From Candidatus Sungiibacteriota bacterium (GTDB lineage Bacteria > Patescibacteriota > Minisyncoccia > Sungbacterales > HO2-52-23), in contig JACPBG010000001.1 of NCBI GenBank assembly GCA_016180435.1, positions 216,006-280,005 on the forward strand: a stretch of DNA of 64,000 nucleotides, written 5' to 3'. Position numbers and translations under genes: made by a program. A model generated the notes under the pieces. It was given only the letters and a program-made list of their open reading frames with translations. It was not told where the DNA came from and searched no databases. Position 1 is the stretch's first letter, and every line of letters starts with the position of its first letter. Below, one piece after another: positions 2,279-31,382 of the stretch.

Positions 2279-3649
2279 ATGCCTCAAATCTCCACCCAAA
2301 ATCCTATTGAGCTTCGCATGCCGCCCCAAAACGTAGAGGCGGAAATGTCGGCTTTGGGATCGCTTATGCTTGACCGCGACGCAATTTTTAAAGTCGCGGA
2401 TTTTTTAAAGCCGCATGATTTTTATAAATCCGCACACCGCGAAATTTACGAGGCGATGCTCGACATTTTCAATCACCGCGAGCCGATTGACGTTTTATCG
2501 GTTACGGCGCGGCTTCGTGAAAAAGGAAAATTGGAGGAAGTTGGGGGATCCGCCTATATCACGAGTTTAGTGAATGTGGTTCCCACCGCCACCCACGTGG
2601 CGCATTACGCTTCAATTGTAAGAAAGAAGCGCCTACTCCGCGATTTAATTGAGGCATCCAGCCATATTGCACAGCTCGGGTACAAGGAGGCGGAGGATGT
2701 TGAACAATTGATCGATGAGGCGGAACAGAAAATATTCGGCATATCGCGCGACTCTCTGCGCCAGGAATTTTTTCTGATAAAAGATGCACTGGAAGAGGCC
2801 TGGGAACGCATTGAAAAAATCCATAACAGCCGCGACGCCCTGCGCGGAGTTACCACGGGCTTTAAAGAACTTGATTCAATCCTGGGGGGCTTGCAAAAAT
2901 CGGACTTGGTCGTGCTGGCTTCGCGCCCGAGTTTAGGAAAAACATCGCTGGCTCTGGATATTTCACGCAATGCCGCGCGAGCCAAACACGCGGTCGGCGT
3001 ATTTAGCTTAGAAATGTCCAAAGAACAGCTGGTGGACCGCTTAATCGCCAGCGAGGCCGCAGTAGACCTTTGGCGCCTGCGCACCGGACATTTAAATCAG
3101 CACGGCGATGGAAATGATTTCTCACGATTGCAAAGCGCTTTATCCACTCTATCGGAACTTCCCCTGTATCTGGACGATACGCCATCCCCCACCGTAATGG
3201 AGCTTCGCGCCAAAGCCAGGCGGCTGCAATCCGAAAAAAAACTTGAACTGGTGGTAATTGATTACCTTCAGCTAATTAAAGGTTATGGAAGCCCGGAGTC
3301 GCGAGTGCAGGAGGTATCGGAAATTTCTCGCTCCCTCAAGGCCATGGCCAAAGAGTTAAATGTGCCGGTGCTTGCTCTTTCCCAGTTATCGCGCGGAGTT
3401 GAAATGAGGCCCTCGGCCATTCCCAAACTTTCGGATTTACGCGAAAGTGGAAGCATTGAGCAGGATGCGGACGTGGTCATGTTTATTTACCGCGAAGATA
3501 AAGTCAAAGAAAACAGCGAACGTAAAAACATCGCCGAAATCCGCGTGGAAAAACACAGGAATGGCCCCACCGGCAAAATTGAACTGTATTTCCACGAAGA
3601 AACCGCCTCATTCCGCTCTCTTGAAAAACATATGGAGGAACTTATATAA
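2279..3649 (+). CDS. dnaB: Replicative DNA helicase DnaB
   Basis: 456 aa; DnaB N-terminal domain (NVEAEMSALGSLMLD), Walker A GxxxxGKT (SRPSLGKTS), C-terminal RecA-like motifs (DYLQLI, ESGSIEQDADVV). Confidence 0.93.
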   Translation: MPQISTQNPIELRMPPQNVEAEMSALGSLMLDRDAIFKVADFLKPHDFYKSAHREIYEAMLDIFNHREPIDVLSVTARLREKGKLEEVGGSAYITSLVNVVPTATHVAHYASIVRKKRLLRDLIEASSHIAQLGYKEAEDVEQLIDEAEQKIFGISRDSLRQEFFLIKDALEEAWERIEKIHNSRDALRGVTTGFKELDSILGGLQKSDLVVLASRPSLGKTSLALDISRNAARAKHAVGVFSLEMSKEQLVDRLIASEAAVDLWRLRTGHLNQHGDGNDFSRLQSALSTLSELPLYLDDTPSPTVMELRAKARRLQSEKKLELVVIDYLQLIKGYGSPESRVQEVSEISRSLKAMAKELNVPVLALSQLSRGVEMRPSAIPKLSDLRESGSIEQDADVVMFIYREDKVKENSERKNIAEIRVEKHRNGPTGKIELYFHEETASFRSLEKHMEELI

Positions 3650-7387: not shown

Positions 7388-7468
7388 ATGTCCTCCTTGT
7401 CAAAGGACGTATTTTCTATCCCCATGTAACCACTGTCTGTTTACACAGTCAAATGCGTGTATATAAAA

Positions 7469-7501
7469 TAAAAAGGCCAAGGCAAAACCTCGGCTTTTTT
7501 T
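7469..7501. terminator. Hairpin with flanking A/T runs (bidirectional terminator; serves minus-strand CoA ligase gene)
   Basis: aaaaa-ggccaaggcaaaacctcggc-ttttttt. Confidence 0.5.
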
Positions 7502-7502
7502 C

Positions 7503-9107
7503 TTATTTTTCGTCTGCCTTTTTCATTTGCAGATCGAGTGATAAATCTATCAGTTTGCGAAGTTCATGCTTCAAAACAGTTCCTTTGGCGGCTTTAGGCA
7601 ATTCATTCACAAATTGAACCCGGCGGATTGCGGAATAACCCGAAAGTTTTTCATGGCTCATCCTCATCACATCTTCCTCGGTCAAGGCCGCATCCGCGCG
7701 CACCACAAATGCATACGGAATTTCTCCTTTATCTTGGTCCGGACATCCTATAACAGCAATCTCGCTTATTCGATCTCCGAAATACCGCAACATCACATCC
7801 TCGATTTCCTTGGGCCATACAGCAAAACCGCTCACCTTCATCATATCATCTTGACGGTCAATAATCCGAAGATGACTTTCATCAAGCACCCCGATATCTC
7901 CGGTAAAAAGCCAGCCCTTGCGAATCCTTTCCTGTGTGGCCTTGGGATTCCGGAAATATCCTTTAAAAACATTAGGCCCTCGAATGATCACCTCGCCCCG
8001 TTTGCCGTCTTGCGTAATTCGTCTGCCGGATTTATCTACCAAACGCACCTCAACGTTTTCAATCGGCTCTCCTACGCTGTCATAACGGTATCCGGACTTA
8101 ACGTCGGCATTGTAGGTCGCAAAAGGAGTGCTCTCGGTTAGGCCGTATCCCATATAAATTTTCCGGCTGAATTTATCATGCCAAGCCCGGGCAGTTTCCG
8201 GAGCAAGCGGCGCTCCGGCGGAAAAAAAATAGCGCACCGAATTAAATGAATCCACATCATTCATACGCAATAATTTTTCATATCCCACCGGAACATGAAA
8301 AAACATGGAAACCCGATTGTCTTGAAGCGACTTGAGTATTTCCGGCGGATTGAACCGCGGGTGCAGTACCAGAGTTGCTCCGGCGTTGAAAGTCGCATTC
8401 ATAATGAAATTCTGACCAAAACAATGAAAAAGCGGCAAAAAACAAATAGCCACATCCTCGGAAGTCATGCCGGTGTGATGAACCGTGGCATTGATATTTG
8501 ACATCACGTTGCCGTGCGTCAACACCGCGCCCTTTCTTCGACCGGTGGTTCCGCTGGTAAGCAGTATGAGCGCAGGGTCTGACGGATCAAGGTCCTGCAA
8601 CGGAGCATAATCCGTGCAAACACCGATTTTTTCCACCTGATAAATCGGCAACACGCCGCCTAAAATAGACGCCTCGCCCCACAAATTTTCATCGGCAACA
8701 AGCACCCTGGGCTTGAGAAAATCAACGTATTCTTTAAGCTCATCGCCTTTCATAGCGGATGAAAGTAATACCGGAACCGCGCCAATCCGCCAAGCCGCAT
8801 AATTTACAACAGGGTACCAAACGTTATTGGTAAGAAAAACCCCGACTCTATCATTTTTCTTAACTCCCCACGATTTCAGTTCCCCGCTGAAAAGACATGC
8901 CAATTCGTGAAGTTCGGCATAGGAAATATGACAATATATCGGTATGCTTTCAGCGGATGTCGCGGGTTCAGTTACCGCAACTTTATTTCCGAAATAACGC
9001 TCGGCTTTCTCCAAAACCGAAAATATGTTCATGATTGCGCCTCCAAAAGAAATATTTTCAACGAACACTCGGATTATATCAATCACGAATTTGTTGTCAA
9101 ACCGCAA
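7503..9107 (-). CDS. AMP-dependent acyl-CoA synthetase/ligase (ANL superfamily; 4-coumarate/cinnamate-CoA-ligase-like)
   Basis: 534 aa; AMP-binding motif LTSGTTGRRKGAVLTHGN, YRTGD-like FTGDIG, C-terminal lysine region PKAAKGTVLKHEL. Confidence 0.85.
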   Translation of the reverse strand: MRFDNKFVIDIIRVFVENISFGGAIMNIFSVLEKAERYFGNKVAVTEPATSAESIPIYCHISYAELHELACLFSGELKSWGVKKNDRVGVFLTNNVWYPVVNYAAWRIGAVPVLLSSAMKGDELKEYVDFLKPRVLVADENLWGEASILGGVLPIYQVEKIGVCTDYAPLQDLDPSDPALILLTSGTTGRRKGAVLTHGNVMSNINATVHHTGMTSEDVAICFLPLFHCFGQNFIMNATFNAGATLVLHPRFNPPEILKSLQDNRVSMFFHVPVGYEKLLRMNDVDSFNSVRYFFSAGAPLAPETARAWHDKFSRKIYMGYGLTESTPFATYNADVKSGYRYDSVGEPIENVEVRLVDKSGRRITQDGKRGEVIIRGPNVFKGYFRNPKATQERIRKGWLFTGDIGVLDESHLRIIDRQDDMMKVSGFAVWPKEIEDVMLRYFGDRISEIAVIGCPDQDKGEIPYAFVVRADAALTEEDVMRMSHEKLSGYSAIRRVQFVNELPKAAKGTVLKHELRKLIDLSLDLQMKKADEK

Positions 9108-24890: not shown

Positions 24891-26020
24891 CTACGGAATA
24901 ATAATATCTTTGAGCTGCTTCGGATATTTGGTTAAATTCCAACAGCCGGTTTTAGTGACTTGCACCAAATCCTCAGTACGAACGCCGAGTTTATTTCCAG
25001 GATCATACAATCCTGGTTCTACCGACGTCACCAGGCCATTTTTTAGGATATAGGATCCTTCATTAATCCGCGCCGGCGGCTCGTGGCATAAAAGTCCAAG
25101 CCCATGGCCGGTGCCGTGGATAAACCCTCGACCCTTAACAAGATCAGTTTTAAAACCCGCTTTCGCAAACAATTCCTCAATCGCAACATGAATATCTTTC
25201 CCATCCACTCCGGCGCGAATCATCCCAATGCCTTTTTCTTGACCGGCAAGTACTGCCTCATACATCTTTACAAAAAGCGTAGGCGGATCGCCTTTACAAA
25301 ACGTCCGCGTCATATCAGAAAAATAACCGGTTTTTCGCGAATAAGGATAGATATCGAATATGATTGAAGTATTAGCACGAAGCGGTCCTACACCCACATG
25401 ATGCGGAATCGCAGATTGGGCGCCAGAAGAAACAATTGTGTCATAAGATGCGCAGCCGCGACGGAAAAGCTCAAGCTCAATGAATGAACGCAATCCTTCG
25501 GATGTAAGCGTCTTACCTTTCTCCATGATGAAACCATTTTTTATCGAGGCGCGGCGAAGGCGCTTTTGCACCAAATCCAGCACATCCTCCATATGATTTT
25601 GTACTTCAGTAATATGGCTGATTTCTTTTTCGGTCTTTACAATACGATTTTCATACCACGGCAACTGGCCAATTCGTATCTTTATCCCGGATTTACGCAA
25701 ACGATCCACAACTTCAATCGGAGTAAACGGGTGAACTTCTAAAGCGGTTAGGCCGCGTTTTTCAAGCAAATATTTTACCCGACTTTCTTGAAATAGGACT
25801 CCGCGTTAAGAACTTGGCAATTTTTGGCCTCAAGCTTCGCACGCGTAAATTCCAAAGATCCGACAAGCAAGAACCTATCCCATCGTCCGTTTTCGCGCGC
25901 AAACTCTAGAAAAAAATGCGGATCCGGAAGCGGCATCCGAACCAGCCAAAAAAGATCCATATTAATGGTTTCGGCCATATAGGTTGCGCCGTATATGAGA
26001 CGTGCTCGTTTTATAGACAT
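24891..26020 (-). pseudogene. Xaa-Pro aminopeptidase (M24B) interrupted by a +/-1 frameshift near 25769-25777
   Basis: Creatinase-like N-terminal domain in ORF 25775-26020 and the rest plus M24 catalytic domain (HGTGHGLGL) in ORF 24891-25769 lie in different frames 5 nt apart; could be a genuine frameshift or a sequencing error. Confidence 0.6.
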
Positions 26021-26953: not shown

Positions 26954-28132
26954 TTGTATCATACAATGGACAGGAGAAAAATTTTATACGTCATTACCAA
27001 GTCAAACTGGGGAGGGGCGCAAAGATACGTTTATGATCTTGCCACAAATTTGCCGCAGAATCGTTTTGAAATTGCCGCGGCAACCGGAGGAAATGGTCTT
27101 TTGATTCAAAAATTGCGCAAAGCCGGCATACGCATTATAGACATCCGATCCTTTCAACGCGACATAAGTATCCTGAAAGAATTTATGGCATTCTGGCATT
27201 TATTTAAGGTATTTTTGCGCGAAAAACCGGATGTCATACATTTAAACAGTTCCAAAGCAGGCGGGATCGGGGCAGTAGCCGCGTTTCTCTACAAACTAAT
27301 AACTAATAACTGGTTACTGATAACTATCTTTACTGCTCATGGCTGGGGATTTAACGAGCCCCGGGCGCATTGGCAAAAATTCCTGATTAGAATTGCAAGT
27401 CGAACCGCCGCCCTATTTCAGGATAAAATCGTTGTGATAAATAACGCCGATTATGATGCCGTACGCTCATTTATTCCGCCGCACAAACTCTCGCTTATAC
27501 ATAACGGCATACGGCGTCCGGAATTTCTGCCAAGACGCGAAGCGCGCAAATTTTTAGAAGAAAAAATCGGACGTCCGCTTCCCTCCGATACACTAACCAT
27601 AGGAACTATTGCAGAACTCACCAAAAATAAAGGACTCATTTATTTGATTGACGCGGTCAATCAAATAAAAACAAAAAACAAAAGACAAAAGACAAAAGTG
27701 ATTATTATCGGAGAAGGTGAGGATAGAAAGATGCTTGAAGAAAAAATAAAAATATGCAATTTGCAAGATACGATTTTTATTACGGGATTCATTCCGGATG
27801 CCGAAAAATATCTAACGGCATTTGATATTTTTGTGCTCCCGTCGCTAAAAGAGGGCCTCCCCTATACTTTGCTTGAAGCCATGGCCGCCGGACTTCCCGC
27901 TATTGCAACCCGCGTAGGAGGAATTCCGGATATAATCCAAAACAACGAAAACGGCCTTATGGTTCCTCCGTCTGATCCGCAAGCCCTTTCCACCGCGCTT
28001 AAAACGCTCATCGAAAATACTGTAATCCGCGCGCGGCTCGGAAAACAAGCCAACCGAACCGTCAAGACAAAATTCACGCTCAATGCTATGATAGAAAAAA
28101 CAATTTCACTCTATAGCACACATGGCTACTAA
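26954..28132 (+). CDS. Glycosyltransferase family 4 (GT-B, Glycos_transf_1)
   Basis: 392 aa; C-terminal EGLPYTLLEAMAAGLPAIATRVGGIPDII...NGLMV motif. Confidence 0.85.
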   Translation: MYHTMDRRKILYVITKSNWGGAQRYVYDLATNLPQNRFEIAAATGGNGLLIQKLRKAGIRIIDIRSFQRDISILKEFMAFWHLFKVFLREKPDVIHLNSSKAGGIGAVAAFLYKLITNNWLLITIFTAHGWGFNEPRAHWQKFLIRIASRTAALFQDKIVVINNADYDAVRSFIPPHKLSLIHNGIRRPEFLPRREARKFLEEKIGRPLPSDTLTIGTIAELTKNKGLIYLIDAVNQIKTKNKRQKTKVIIIGEGEDRKMLEEKIKICNLQDTIFITGFIPDAEKYLTAFDIFVLPSLKEGLPYTLLEAMAAGLPAIATRVGGIPDIIQNNENGLMVPPSDPQALSTALKTLIENTVIRARLGKQANRTVKTKFTLNAMIEKTISLYSTHGY

Positions 28133-29513
28133 CCGCATCAAAATCACGCTTCTTATTTTAGGGGACTTTCTAACACTCTGGGGAACCCTAATTTTGATTT
28201 TGTTTCTCCGCTATCACGCCGATCAAGATTTCGATCTACAAAAAATGTTTCAAATCCATGTAGCGCCTTTTACTCTCGTATTTGCCGCCTGGCTCGTACT
28301 TTTCGGCGCTTTTGGATTATACGACATACGGACGCTCGGCCTCGTTACCATACGGGATGCGCGGAGGCTTTTATTAAGAATGACGGAAGCAATGGCGTTT
28401 AATACGGCCTCGGCCATTATCATTTTTTATTTGATTCCGGCATTTGAAATCGAACCGCGCCGCAATTTATTCTTGGTGGTTTTGGGATCATTATTCTTCA
28501 TCTTTACATGGCGCTGCCTTATTAATCTTTTCATAACCAAAGCCAAGCCCTTACCGATCGCATTTTTTGGCATTAACAAAGAAGTGGTGGAGCTTGCGGA
28601 TTGGCTCCTGAAAAATCCGCAGCTCGGAAGAAAGCCGGCCGCATTCATATCCGCAAACAGCGAGGACACCCTGCGTCCCCTGCCCCTTCCCGTGTTCACC
28701 CACACCCAAGACATGCAGCATCTAGCGCGCGATTTGGCGCTGGATGCCATAATCATTACCCGCGAGATCAAAGAGAATAAAACACTGACGCGCGCTCTTT
28801 TTCAAATGATACCGCTGGGCGTAGGCATTACGGAATTTACGGCATTCCACGAAATGCTCACCGGAAAAATCCCTTTATCACTCATAGGGGAAGTGTGGTT
28901 TTTGGAAAATCTGGCTGGCAGCCAAAAAGACATATATGAATTTTTCAAACGCGTGCTTGATATCGGACTTGCCATACTTCTGGGCATTCCATTTTTAGTC
29001 CTTTTACCTTTAACTGCAATTTTTATCAAAATCAATTCGCCGGGTAGAATATTCTTCCGGCAAAAACGGGTGGGTAAAAATGGAAAGGAGTTTTTTCTGA
29101 TAAAATTCCGTTCTATGGTGCAGACTGCCGAAAAACTTGGCGGATTTAAAAATGAATCCGAAGACCGCCGCCATACCGGCGTAGGAAAATTTTTAAGAAA
29201 AATATATATTGACGAATTGCCACAAATAATAAATGTTTTGCGCGGTGAAATGTCATTTATCGGACCGCGGCCGGAGCGGCCCGAATATGTCCGCGAACTA
29301 AAAGAAAAAATTCCGTTTTACGAAATGCGACTTTTAGTTCCGCCCGGCATCACCGGCTGGGCGCAAATTAATATGGAGAATGACGCATCCGTGGAGGATG
29401 CGCCGGAAAAAATGCAGTATGATCTTTATTACATCAAAAATCGTTCATTCCTGCTGGATATTCTAGTGGCGCTCCGCACAATTTTTATCATTCTCCGCCG
29501 CCCTGGAAGATAG
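28122..29513 (+). CDS. Polyprenyl-phosphate sugar phosphotransferase (WbaP/PssY-like initiating transferase)
   Basis: 463 aa; N-terminal TM helices, C-terminal Bac_transf domain (KFRSM, DELPQIINVLRGEMSFIGPRPERP, PGITGWAQIN). Confidence 0.85.
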   Translation: MATNRIKITLLILGDFLTLWGTLILILFLRYHADQDFDLQKMFQIHVAPFTLVFAAWLVLFGAFGLYDIRTLGLVTIRDARRLLLRMTEAMAFNTASAIIIFYLIPAFEIEPRRNLFLVVLGSLFFIFTWRCLINLFITKAKPLPIAFFGINKEVVELADWLLKNPQLGRKPAAFISANSEDTLRPLPLPVFTHTQDMQHLARDLALDAIIITREIKENKTLTRALFQMIPLGVGITEFTAFHEMLTGKIPLSLIGEVWFLENLAGSQKDIYEFFKRVLDIGLAILLGIPFLVLLPLTAIFIKINSPGRIFFRQKRVGKNGKEFFLIKFRSMVQTAEKLGGFKNESEDRRHTGVGKFLRKIYIDELPQIINVLRGEMSFIGPRPERPEYVRELKEKIPFYEMRLLVPPGITGWAQINMENDASVEDAPEKMQYDLYYIKNRSFLLDILVALRTIFIILRRPGR

Positions 29514-29576
29514 TTTGACATCTTAATACCAATATGATACCGTAACTTGAGACCCTTAAGTTAGCGGAGTGAAAAA

Positions 29577-29981
29577 ATGGCTTTTAGTATGCAGCGCCTT
29601 GTCCCGGCAAATGAAACTAAAAAGGGGAAGCGCACATGGAATTGGAACATGCCGGACGGAAAACAAATAACGATTTATCAGAGATATCGGGACGAGGAAT
29701 TCGGAAATCACTTCCATAAAGGAGGGGACCCTTCAAAAAATCCGGAAAGGTTTCTCCTTCTTAACGGGATAGTTTATTTTTGGCTCGAAGATAAAAACGG
29801 CCACAGATATACTATGGTACTAGACGCAACCGATGGACCGGTGGAAATCATGATACGACCGTATATTCTCCACGGCGCCCGGGCGCTGGCAGATTGTTGC
29901 TTTATCGAATACCGGCAGAGCAAATTTGATCCGGCACATACAGATACATATCCGGAAGAAATCTTTCGGGAAACACATTAA
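29577..29981 (+). CDS. Cupin-fold protein, WxcM/FdtA-like (sugar ketoisomerase-like)
   Basis: 134 aa; GNHFHKGG metal-binding-like motif, similar to cupins at 44349-44810 and 57212-57604. Confidence 0.5.
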   Translation: MAFSMQRLVPANETKKGKRTWNWNMPDGKQITIYQRYRDEEFGNHFHKGGDPSKNPERFLLLNGIVYFWLEDKNGHRYTMVLDATDGPVEIMIRPYILHGARALADCCFIEYRQSKFDPAHTDTYPEEIFRETH

Positions 29982-30007
29982 AAGAACGCCTGCGCGTTCT
30001 TTTTTTA
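29982..30007 (+). terminator. Rho-independent terminator
   Basis: aagaacgcctgcgcgttctt followed by ttttttt. Confidence 0.7.
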
Positions 30008-30106
30008 ATTTGGATGACCTCTCGTTAAATATTATGGGATAATGGTAAAAATGGGGGGCTAAATATGTTAGTATAAATGATACTTATCAACTAATTTATG
30101 TAAAAG

Positions 30107-30502
30107 TTACAATGGTCTACAAAAAACGGCAAAATTTGCCCTTCCTGCGGCAGAAAAAATGCAAAAAAGAACGGATATTCACGCGGCAAGCAGCAATATA
30201 AATGCTTAAAGTGCAATAAGAAGTTTTCCGGTCAAAGACGACGCGGTATTTTACAAAGTATTCTTTGGCAGCAATACGCCCATGATTATTGCACAGTAGA
30301 TCAACTGACCCGCAAGTATCACCGAAGCGAAAAGTGGATCCGATCTCAACTGGATGCATACCGATTCCCGGAACATAAGATGGCGCCGCGTCCGGTCGTG
30401 ATCGTGGCTGACGCCATGTTCTTTGGAAGACACTGGGGAGTGGTAGTAATGCGCGCTCCGCACAATTTTCATCATTCTCCGCCGCCCTGGAAGATAGGAT
30501 AA
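30107..30502 (+). pseudogene. Zinc-ribbon transposase remnant (IS1/IS1595-type N-terminus; truncated, no ATG start)
   Basis: Frame encodes KNGKICPSCGRKNAKKNGYSRGKQQYKCLKCNKKFS (CxxC-N17-CxxC ribbon) then ...PRPVVIVADAMFFGRHWGVVV resembling the start of a DDE domain; ORF ends inside the duplicated 45-bp segment. Confidence 0.45.
30453..30497. repeat. 45-bp direct duplicate (44/45 identical) of the 3' end of the sugar-transferase gene (copy 1 at 29469-29513)
   Basis: gcgctccgcacaattttcatcattctccgccgccctggaagatag vs gcgctccgcacaatttttatcattctccgccgccctggaagatag; encodes ALRTIFIILRRPGR* in both places. Confidence 0.9.
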
Positions 30503-30548
30503 AAACAGGTTATTATCACAAATTGTCATACGGAATATCTGTATTTTT

Positions 30549-30586
30549 TACTCTGATATGTATACGATCGAAATAATATCAGAGTA
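30549..30586. promoter_or_regulatory. 38-bp palindromic site TACTCTGATAT-N16-ATATCAGAGTA (copy A, downstream of PaaX-like gene)
   Basis: tactctgatatgtatacgatcgaaataatatcagagta; second copy at 31284-31321. Confidence 0.6.
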
Positions 30587-30638
30587 AATCTGAATATCCG
30601 CCGCAGAACCATACAGAAAAATAAGATAGATAATACAT

Positions 30639-31232
30639 TTAAATTTCGTGAATGGTCCCGCGCTTATTTACCGAAAAAATATGAACGTGCGGTAGTAACT
30701 TTCTTTCCCGAATTGCATGAATAAAATCCTCGTCTATGGCATTGCCGCGGCTAACCCAAACGCTTTTTTGCAACAATTTAAATTCCATTTCTCGAAGACA
30801 AGCACGAACCCAATCACGAGCCCTGCGCTCTTTTTCGGGGATGTCAAATGCAACAATTATCAAACCGCTCCCCGTCGGAGGATCAAGTGAAACGGAAAAT
30901 TTTGAAAAATTATTCTGGGAGCGATCACGGATATACCTTAATCGTTCAATGCCACGTTTAGTAATATTCCAAAATGACGACTTTCCTTTTTCTTTTTTTA
31001 CCACCAATCCCTCATGTTGCAAATAATTGAGGGTGTTGTAAAATTGACGATGTTTCCTATAGATATCGGCCCAATCAGTTTTGAACTGGCGCGGACCTTG
31101 AGATAAGAATCTCCGATAATCGCGACGTGCCTCAGATTTAGACATAAAAAAGGATTTAAATAAATCAACGGTCACTTCCGCCTCGAATTGAAGTAATTCT
31201 AGAATTTTTTCGACAAACGTTTCGCGCTTCAT
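30639..31232 (-). CDS. PaaX-family-like transcriptional regulator: N-terminal winged HTH + C-terminal Cas2-like domain
   Basis: 197 aa; C-terminal LIIVAFDIPEKERRARDWVRACLREMEFKLLQKSVWV parallels Cas2 N-terminal beta-alpha-beta (lVlVsYDIsdd.rRrkvaklL..yGqRVQySVF) and the PaaX middle domain. Confidence 0.55.
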   Translation of the reverse strand: MKRETFVEKILELLQFEAEVTVDLFKSFFMSKSEARRDYRRFLSQGPRQFKTDWADIYRKHRQFYNTLNYLQHEGLVVKKEKGKSSFWNITKRGIERLRYIRDRSQNNFSKFSVSLDPPTGSGLIIVAFDIPEKERRARDWVRACLREMEFKLLQKSVWVSRGNAIDEDFIHAIRERKLLPHVHIFSVNKRGTIHEI

Positions 31233-31283
31233 TTAAATATATTCAGTGGCCAAAAACCGCGTTCCAGCCCGCAAAAATTTATA

Positions 31284-31321
31284 TACTCTGATATTTATAC
31301 GATCGTATTTATATCAGAGTA
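31284..31321. promoter_or_regulatory. 38-bp near-perfect palindrome (copy B) ~50 bp upstream of PaaX-like gene; putative operator
   Basis: tactctgatatttatacgatcgtatttatatcagagta (34/38 self-complementary). Confidence 0.6.
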
Positions 31322-31382
31322 AAAAATATTATTACTGGTCTGGTACTACTTGGGGGGAAGATAAAAAAACAATTATTAATAC

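Follow-up and report, generated by a model that had tools for sequence, protein, structure and literature searches.

Within a 64,000-nucleotide stretch of contig JACPBG010000001.1 from a Candidatus Sungiibacteriota bacterium (hereafter the window, to which all coordinates refer unless another contig is named), the last 45 nucleotides of a gene for a WbaP-like initiating sugar-phosphate transferase occur twice, and the DNA between the two copies carries a gene for a predicted cupin-fold protein, a terminator and the beginning of an insertion sequence (IS). The transferase gene, wbaP (28122–29513, forward strand), is intact and encodes 463 amino acids (Pfam PF02397, Bac_transf, E=8e-62); its product is, over its full length, 83% identical to the orthologue on contig LCKU01000012.1 of Parcubacteria group bacterium GW2011_GWA2_45_30 (L006). 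The 45-mer that closes the gene, GCGCTCCGCACAATTTTTATCATTCTCCGCCGCCCTGGAAGATAG, has exactly two occurrences in the window. The first copy, R (29469–29513, forward strand, 0 mismatches), is the working 3' end of wbaP including its TAG stop codon, while the second, R' (30453–30497, forward strand), is identical to it at 44 of 45 positions; the number of copies expected by chance was 0 (100 shuffles). An earlier note on this DNA had described the duplication of the transferase 3' end and, between its copies, an intact 134-amino-acid open reading frame (ORF), a terminator hairpin and an ATG-less ORF with a four-cysteine ribbon; alignment of 29469–29513 with 30453–30497 reproduced the duplication, and all three features are present in the interval.

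The sole difference between R and R' is T29486 versus C30470, which changes TTT to TTC and is synonymous, at the third position of a Phe codon, in the wbaP frame. R' has TTC at this single variable site, like L006; despite the shared base, the difference does not separate the candidate insertion routes considered below. Identity between the copies ceases precisely at the G of the TAG stop codon. The gene end was duplicated, as had been proposed, and WbaP therefore retains a normal C-terminus, ...LVALRTIFIILRRPGR*, identical to that of the L006 protein. The structure was recovered with 100% identity across both repeats in separate per-run Logan assemblies from at least 12 sequencing runs (SRR4343430, same contig, 7 samples; SRR12113384/85/390/420/425/428/429). 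Since these independent per-run assemblies reproduce the arrangement of R and R' on contigs spanning both repeats, it is not an assembly artefact.

Directly after R lies a 63-nt spacer of foreign origin (29514–29576, forward strand), which has no counterpart in L006 and contains GGAG 8 nt before the ATG of the next gene. The hexamer TTGACA, found right after the wbaP stop codon (29515–29520), was considered as a promoter element and discarded, as it has no properly spaced -10 box and was not flagged by the promoter scan. The next gene (29577–29981, forward strand) encodes the 134-amino-acid protein, for which AlphaFold2 (AF2) modelling and Foldseek searches predict a cupin fold of the CapF C-terminal domain/FdtA/RmlC-like type and a putative role as sugar-nucleotide epimerase or isomerase. 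It is followed by an intrinsic terminator hairpin (29980–30003, forward strand; -11.6 kcal/mol, z = -4.5), and the terminator scan that detected this hairpin found none between wbaP and the cupin gene.

The interval continues with the left part of an IS of the IS256 family, in its zinc-binding variant. DNA alignment to five related IS copies, which share 68–75% protein identity with the window over the retained N-terminal region, assigns 30036–30465 (forward strand) to the left 417–430 nt of an element of ~1,035 bp, a length taken from two of the copies (L033 and L034). The left terminus, GGGATAATGGTAAAAA (30036–30051), is identical in all aligned relatives, and its position is defined by L035, L036 and L038, which carry the same IS in different flanks and diverge just upstream of GGGATAATGG. 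With the terminus placed at 30036, the cupin gene and its terminator lie outside the IS. DNA homology with the relatives ends at 30462–30465; ~40% of the element and the first ~39% of the transposase protein are retained, and neither an IS right end nor a right inverted repeat was found anywhere in the window.

The transposase fragment is contained in the ATG-less ORF (30107–30502, forward strand; NF048019, E=2e-21), which comprises transposase residues ~1–119, with a zinc ribbon, a helix-turn-helix (HTH)-like region and the first catalytic Asp, and then 12 codons of the wbaP duplicate read in a frame other than that of wbaP. Residues 13–115 align to positions 2–106 of the 304 positions of the NF048019 profile with 76.4 bits, against a cutoff of 150, and the ORF misses this whole-protein cutoff (150 bits, ~304 amino acids); five relatives (P0221, P0200, P0266, P0024 and P0027) reach 286–320 bits, full-length relatives being 278–320 amino acids long. 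Because the ORF covers only profile positions 2–106, the window holds the remnant of a member of this group, not a functional member. The N-terminal four-cysteine zinc-binding domain is present at ORF residues 11–41 (NF050000, 34.6 bits, cutoff 28; NF048018, 31.4 bits, cutoff 27). The DDE domain is incomplete, having only its first conserved Asp (D102 in VADAMFFGR), and the alignment with full-length relatives stops at about residue 119. Transposase relatives were identified by an exhaustive HMMER search (371 relatives) and by profile search, the word-indexed protein search having given only one 79-amino-acid match.

The profile results agree with the earlier note in that the ribbon ORF is a transposase remnant, an N-terminus that includes the first catalytic Asp, and they revise it in several details. 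The element had been called IS1/IS1595-type; its family is the IS256 zinc-binding variant NF048019, and only the N-terminal zinc-ribbon model is common to IS1/IS1595. The cysteine spacing, given as CxxC-N17-CxxC, is CxxC-N18-CxxC, and the ORF, described as ending inside the duplicate, reads through R' and stops 3 nt past it (TAA, 30500–30502). Lacking a right end, a complete DDE domain and an in-frame start, the IS remnant is, judging from its sequence, inert.

Comparison with related genomes identifies the DNA between R and R' as an insertion. A genome scan with WbaP retrieved L006, where WbaP is full length and synteny extends to both sides through a GT4 glycosyltransferase, WbaP, a PaaX/Cas2-like protein, an epimerase, a dehydrogenase-like protein and a large O-antigen-ligase-like protein. 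In L006, 98 nt separate the wbaP stop codon from the end of the convergent PaaX-like gene. The hairpin in this spacer, TATACTGATATACGAACGATCGTTTATACATCAGTATA, aligns to 30548–30586 of the window, i.e. downstream of R', and the spacer gives no alignment to the DNA after R. Because the spacer aligns there and not after the first copy, R' and the DNA that follows it represent the ancestral wbaP end and its surroundings: R' is an orphaned wbaP 3' end to which the ancestral downstream DNA is still attached. Relative to the L006 empty site, the window has 984 extra bases.

The same empty arrangement, wbaP followed by 98 nt and the PaaX-like gene, is present in three metagenome contigs (L039–L041). 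Across the 59 related wbaP loci retrieved, the order GT4, wbaP, convergent epimerase is kept, and neither the 134-amino-acid cupin protein nor the transposase occurs in any of them (0/59). The insertion and a synteny comparison for an empty site had both been put forward beforehand, and the comparison was positive: L006 and L039–L041 are without the segment. Searches of the insert against plasmid and phage collections gave no match, and exact-protein look-ups with WbaP, the cupin protein and the PaaX-like protein returned only contigs bearing the same insertion, with neither a conspecific empty site nor a donor. GC content and skew do not set the insert apart, and scans of the region for Rfam families and tRNAs found none.

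The right junction of the insert could be resolved almost to the base. Transposase homology does not stop where R' starts; it passes 30452 and reaches 10–13 nt into R'. At this point the window reads ATGCGCGCTCCGCACAATTTTC, the IS relatives read ATGCGT(A/G)ATCCGCA(C/T)AAAAAAG or ...CACCGGAG, and wbaP reads AGTGGCGCTCCGCACAATTTTT. The bases ATGC (30449–30452) belong to the transposase only and TTTTC onward to wbaP only, with TCCGCACAA (30457–30465) between them common to the IS relatives and wbaP, being native both to the transposase, where it falls in R-x-P-H, and to wbaP, where it falls in A-L-R-T; positions 30453–30456 are ambiguous. In protein alignments the family motif is G-x-x-V-x-R-x-P-H and the window reads GVVVMRAPH, R116 and P118 being invariant and H119 present in five of six close relatives. 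The tblastn alignments of the closest relatives all stop at 30463. Because transposase homology and wbaP homology overlap over 30453–30465 (forward strand), the right junction is a microhomology join. It follows from the same overlap that the unambiguous wbaP duplicate is 30466–30497 (32 nt), the first 9–13 nt of R' being also native transposase sequence. The microhomology is best put at 9 nt, of which ~7 nt (TCCGCA[C]) appear certain and 9 probable, with up to 13 possible if the donor codons were CGC GCT.

The feature is probably, though by no means certainly, the scar of a single, fairly recent illegitimate recombination that spliced a foreign segment of ~940 bp into wbaP at its 3' end. The ancestral order would have been GT4, wbaP and a short hairpin spacer, followed on the opposite strand by the PaaX-like gene and the epimerase, and the incoming DNA would have carried the cupin gene, its terminator and, 32 nt later, an IS of the IS256 zinc-variant type. 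The right join would have formed where the transposase (...ATG CGx xxT CCG CAC AA..., M-R-x-P-H) matches wbaP (...G GCG CTC CGC ACA A..., A-L-R-T), 45 nt before the stop codon, cutting the transposase at codon ~119 and discarding the other 60% of the IS. With a complete wbaP end upstream of the foreign DNA, the last 45 nt would then stand twice, R closing the working gene and R' remaining as an orphan in the transposase frame. The transposase was thus truncated by the event itself and is cargo, not agent; the earlier note had the transposase decay after integration, but its truncation is better read as the junction itself.

Two routes could have led to this product. In route (a), which is homology-facilitated, a related donor bearing wbaP, cupin and IS would have paired with the recipient through wbaP, and its heterologous tail would have been fixed at the microhomology, looping in 984 nt. 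In route (b), two illegitimate joins or template switches would have been involved, with a return to the chromosome 45 nt upstream of the point of departure. From the observed insertion, empty site, IS left end, truncation and right-junction microhomology we infer the recombination pathway itself, by route (a) or route (b).

Several points weigh against a single recombination of this kind. No donor, either a cupin gene beside an intact copy of the IS or a wbaP-cupin pair, was found in any search, and routes (a) and (b) are not separable. On the side of the presumed homologous anchor, wbaP ends upstream of the insert in a sequence that matches R' at 44/45 positions, and no donor sequence was found. 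The left junction lies exactly at the end of the TAG codon, a coincidence of ~1 in 50 to 1 in 100 among viable positions if the join was random, and one that is accounted for only by an integrative-element model which is rejected on other grounds. Moreover, the native transposase sequence at the right junction is inferred from relatives only ~73% identical in DNA, and chance alone gives ~5 shared words of 9–10 nt per pair of such an IS and wbaP. Since shared 9–10-mers arise that often, no special site is needed for the join; the probability of an arbitrary breakpoint falling on such an identity is ~4^-9, and the argument rests on the coincidence of the breakpoint with a shared word, not on the rarity of the word.

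The same product, with the same demonstrated microhomology, could also have arisen from a two-copy intermediate, in which wbaP, cupin and IS were followed by a second wbaP and the PaaX-like gene, through a microhomology deletion that began at transposase codon ~119 and left the last 45 nt of the second wbaP in place. That duplications of the gene pair do occur is indicated by a Bac_transf 3' fragment lying between cupin paralogues in another genome (L027, described below). This history is nonetheless rather unlikely: it is less parsimonious, requiring at least two extra events (a near-identical duplication of wbaP and an insertion between the copies), and 0/59 related loci have tandem full-length wbaP copies flanking a cupin gene, the closest relatives having a single wbaP joined straight to the ancestral downstream DNA. 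The earlier note had instead envisaged a site-specific integrative element with the 45-nt wbaP 3' end as its att site, regenerating the gene end as islands do at tRNA genes and decaying later. Direct repeats do bracket the insert, an empty site exists, and the repeat identity stops at the stop codon, as expected if the coding sequence alone needs restoring. Against this, ORF, Pfam and NCBIfam analyses revealed no recombinase of the tyrosine or serine type within or next to the insert. Its sole mobility gene encodes a DDE transposase, from a family whose elements have terminal inverted repeats, and it is the repeat itself that interrupts the transposase ORF, at a position of chance identity. 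The insert is 984 bp long, occurs at no other wbaP locus (0/59) and is absent from the plasmid and phage collections. The analogy with integration at tRNA 3' ends is thus not supported, there being no integrase, no tRNA and no recurrence, and the left edge of R' lying inside transposase homology at a 9–13-nt chance identity; such an element is very improbable here.

Transposition by the IS transposase, with an unusually long target-site duplication of 45 bp, would make use of the IS remnant that is present, and 13/16 positions of wbaP 29482–29497 (TTTTTATCATTCTCCG) agree with the IS left end in reverse complement. Target duplications of the IS256 family are, however, short (~8–9 bp), and the repeats abut no IS end: 522 nt separate R from the left IS end, R' borders on a codon inside the transposase gene, and no right end is present. 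The 29482–29497 segment was also considered as a surrogate transposon end and rejected as probably a chance resemblance, since the true right ends of relatives match it at just 11/16 positions and no IS end lies at the join. Transposition is effectively refuted by this anatomy. Equally remote is a chimeric assembly join at a shared k-mer, for which one might cite that the window is probably metagenome-assembled; the identical arrangement in the separate assemblies from at least 12 runs, with contigs across both repeats, speaks against it.

As for the gene delivered by the proposed illegitimate recombination, the AF2 model of the 134-amino-acid protein is an all-beta barrel (pLDDT 77, pTM 0.71). 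Its best Foldseek match in the PDB is the C-terminal cupin domain of Staphylococcus aureus CapF (E=2e-7, TMq 0.67, 23% identity), and FdtA and RmlC are also matched (all matches E=2e-7 to 1e-4, TMq 0.5–0.67). No Pfam or NCBIfam family was matched at E<=1, a search of JGI metagenome contigs gave nothing, and only three clusters of homologues were found. The gene for one homologue, P0003 (50% identity), immediately follows a Bac_transf fragment; the surrounding sugar cluster also encodes DegT aminotransferases, transketolase subunits and a Polysacc_synt_2 enzyme. The modelled fold resembles sugar-nucleotide enzymes and accords with the cupin identity assigned previously, so that a sugar-modifying cupin is a reasonable reading of the protein; the further suggestion that the event recruited an accessory sugar-modifying gene into the island is supported in a general sense. 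Because a ribosome-binding site is present and an upstream terminator is not, the cupin gene is probably co-transcribed with GT4 and wbaP, transcription ending at its own terminator.

A related arrangement was observed in L027 (JBGOTK010000031.1, 17–1485), where a C-terminal Bac_transf fragment (~residue 330 to the end) is flanked by cupin paralogues in a different sugar cluster, a second instance of cupin genes and a sugar-transferase 3' fragment rearranged together.

The alignments of the IS also brought to light a conserved feature at the start of its transposase gene. In the window, ATG GTC TAC and a run of six A (30112–30127, forward strand) form a start that does not share the frame of the ribbon ORF and that corresponds to a conserved ATG-N3/6-A7 motif in the IS relatives. 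Every related copy examined, down to members just 36–40% identical to the window ORF, likewise has an A-run separating the ATG from a zinc-ribbon ORF in another frame. The corresponding sites read ATG GTC TAT A7 in L035 (~277–295), ATG CGC TAC A7 in L034 (~37–52), ATG AAC CGT A7 in L033, ATG GGT A7 in L088 and ATG AGT A7 in L083 (~516–530). The frame would be restored by one extra A in most copies, and by one fewer A in L083 and the window. The A-run is thus probably a site of programmed transcriptional slippage or ribosomal frameshifting, 2–3 codons past the start; A-run slippage in IS genes is already known (PMC1088944, PMC6211511). A ribbon start behind such a frameshift would explain why gene callers report proteins of ~278 amino acids from an internal ATG, without half of the ribbon. 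By-products of the analysis are the left end and size now defined for a poorly described IS group, together with evidence that a zinc-ribbon start hidden by an A-run frameshift leads to systematic truncation to ~278 amino acids in gene calls. Two zinc-variant copies from metagenomes, in L035 and L036, adjoin a second, unrelated transposase gene (DDE_Tnp_1; L035 1416–2237, L036 1224–2027), and these may be nested or clustered elements.

Downstream of R', the ancestral intergenic DNA (30498–30638) aligns to L006 7393–7490, including a palindromic hairpin at 30544–30588 (folding energy -14.7 kcal/mol, z = -4.3). Beyond it lies the wbaP neighbour at the empty site, the gene for the PaaX/Cas2-like winged-HTH protein (30639–31232, reverse strand; PF20803, E=6e-13; L006 orthologue 7491–8087). 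This gene is flanked by two hairpin copies of ~45 nt, at 30544–30588 and 31279–31323, which are 87% identical. The palindrome is ATACGATCGTAT, with a loop, ACGATCG, that is conserved across species and stems that vary; it may serve as a terminator, as a protein-binding site or in both roles. L006 has both copies (7421–7462 and 8093–8131), and L042, which is without the PaaX-like gene, has a single hairpin (3560–3597) between convergent wbaP and epimerase genes. This pattern suggests that the PaaX-like gene was inserted at the same spot earlier, likewise between copies of a duplicated target. It is conceivable, if decidedly doubtful, that the spot between wbaP and the epimerase has taken up genes at least twice, each time with a target duplication of ~45 nt, not by coincidence but through a systematic gene-capture route of these Parcubacteria, linked to competence or replication, that would leave long target duplications and spare the neighbouring genes and terminators. 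If this were true, the window would offer a natural case, open to dating, of surface-glycan gene acquisition by reduced episymbiont genomes that needs no dedicated mobile-element machinery. Elsewhere in the window, at 25778, a 22-nt deletion was noted relative to an otherwise identical Logan contig (L001, from SRR4343430); it lies inside a Peptidase_M24 gene, which encodes 383 amino acids in L001 and is split in the window, and reflects strain variation or an assembly difference.

Overall, the duplication noted earlier is confirmed and the interpretation placed on it is borne out in part. The scar itself is a well-resolved natural case of a known, ordinary type of event, and the remnant that it contains belongs to a known IS family. 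Its interest lies in the base-pair view, with an empty site, of an accessory sugar-modifying gene entering a surface-glycan operon in an uncultivated member of the Parcubacteria. The process required no functional mobile element, a chance identity of 9–13 nt having sufficed, and duplication of its end preserved the essential transferase gene. The locus also carries a warning for annotation, as a transposase fragment adjoining a repeat may be cargo rather than agent.

Each component of the locus can be set beside a known system. The 134-amino-acid protein shares its predicted fold with the C-terminal cupin domain of CapF (capsule synthesis in S. aureus), the 3,4-ketoisomerase FdtA and the 3,5-epimerase RmlC; it keeps the HxH motif (H45, H47) and its gene sits in a glycan-synthesis operon, yet it is at most 23% identical to the solved structures and has no Pfam or NCBIfam match. 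The remnant resembles the NF048019 variant of IS256, which is related to IS1249, in its four-cysteine ribbon, its HTH-like segment, its first Asp and the identical left 16 nt, and differs in having neither a right inverted repeat nor an in-frame start codon. With genomic islands at the 3' ends of tRNA or protein genes, the insert has in common the 3'-end direct repeats that bracket it, the intact gene and the empty site in relatives; unlike them, it is shorter than 1 kb, has no integrase and is non-recurring, and the left boundary of its repeat is a chance identity inside the transposase ORF.

The closest parallels are offered by homology-facilitated illegitimate recombination (HFIR) and double illegitimate recombination, as known from natural transformation of Acinetobacter baylyi, Streptococcus pneumoniae and Pseudomonas stutzeri. 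The window differs from these in being a natural scar in an uncultivated Parcubacteria genome rather than a laboratory transformant, and its outcome is a 45-nt duplication of recipient DNA; deletion is reportedly the usual outcome in the work of de Vries and Wackernagel. What the window shares with them is foreign DNA fixed at a short microhomology, one flank identical to the recipient and no dedicated recombinase. Microhomologies of 3–10 bp beside a homologous anchor have been documented as characteristic of HFIR (PMC6382021, citing de Vries & Wackernagel 2002 and Prudhomme 2002); for double illegitimate recombination, 'extended microhomologies' that may contain mismatches have been described (bioRxiv 10.1101/2023.11.22.568220), and the gain of accessory genes through such recombination events has been discussed (PMC12359135).

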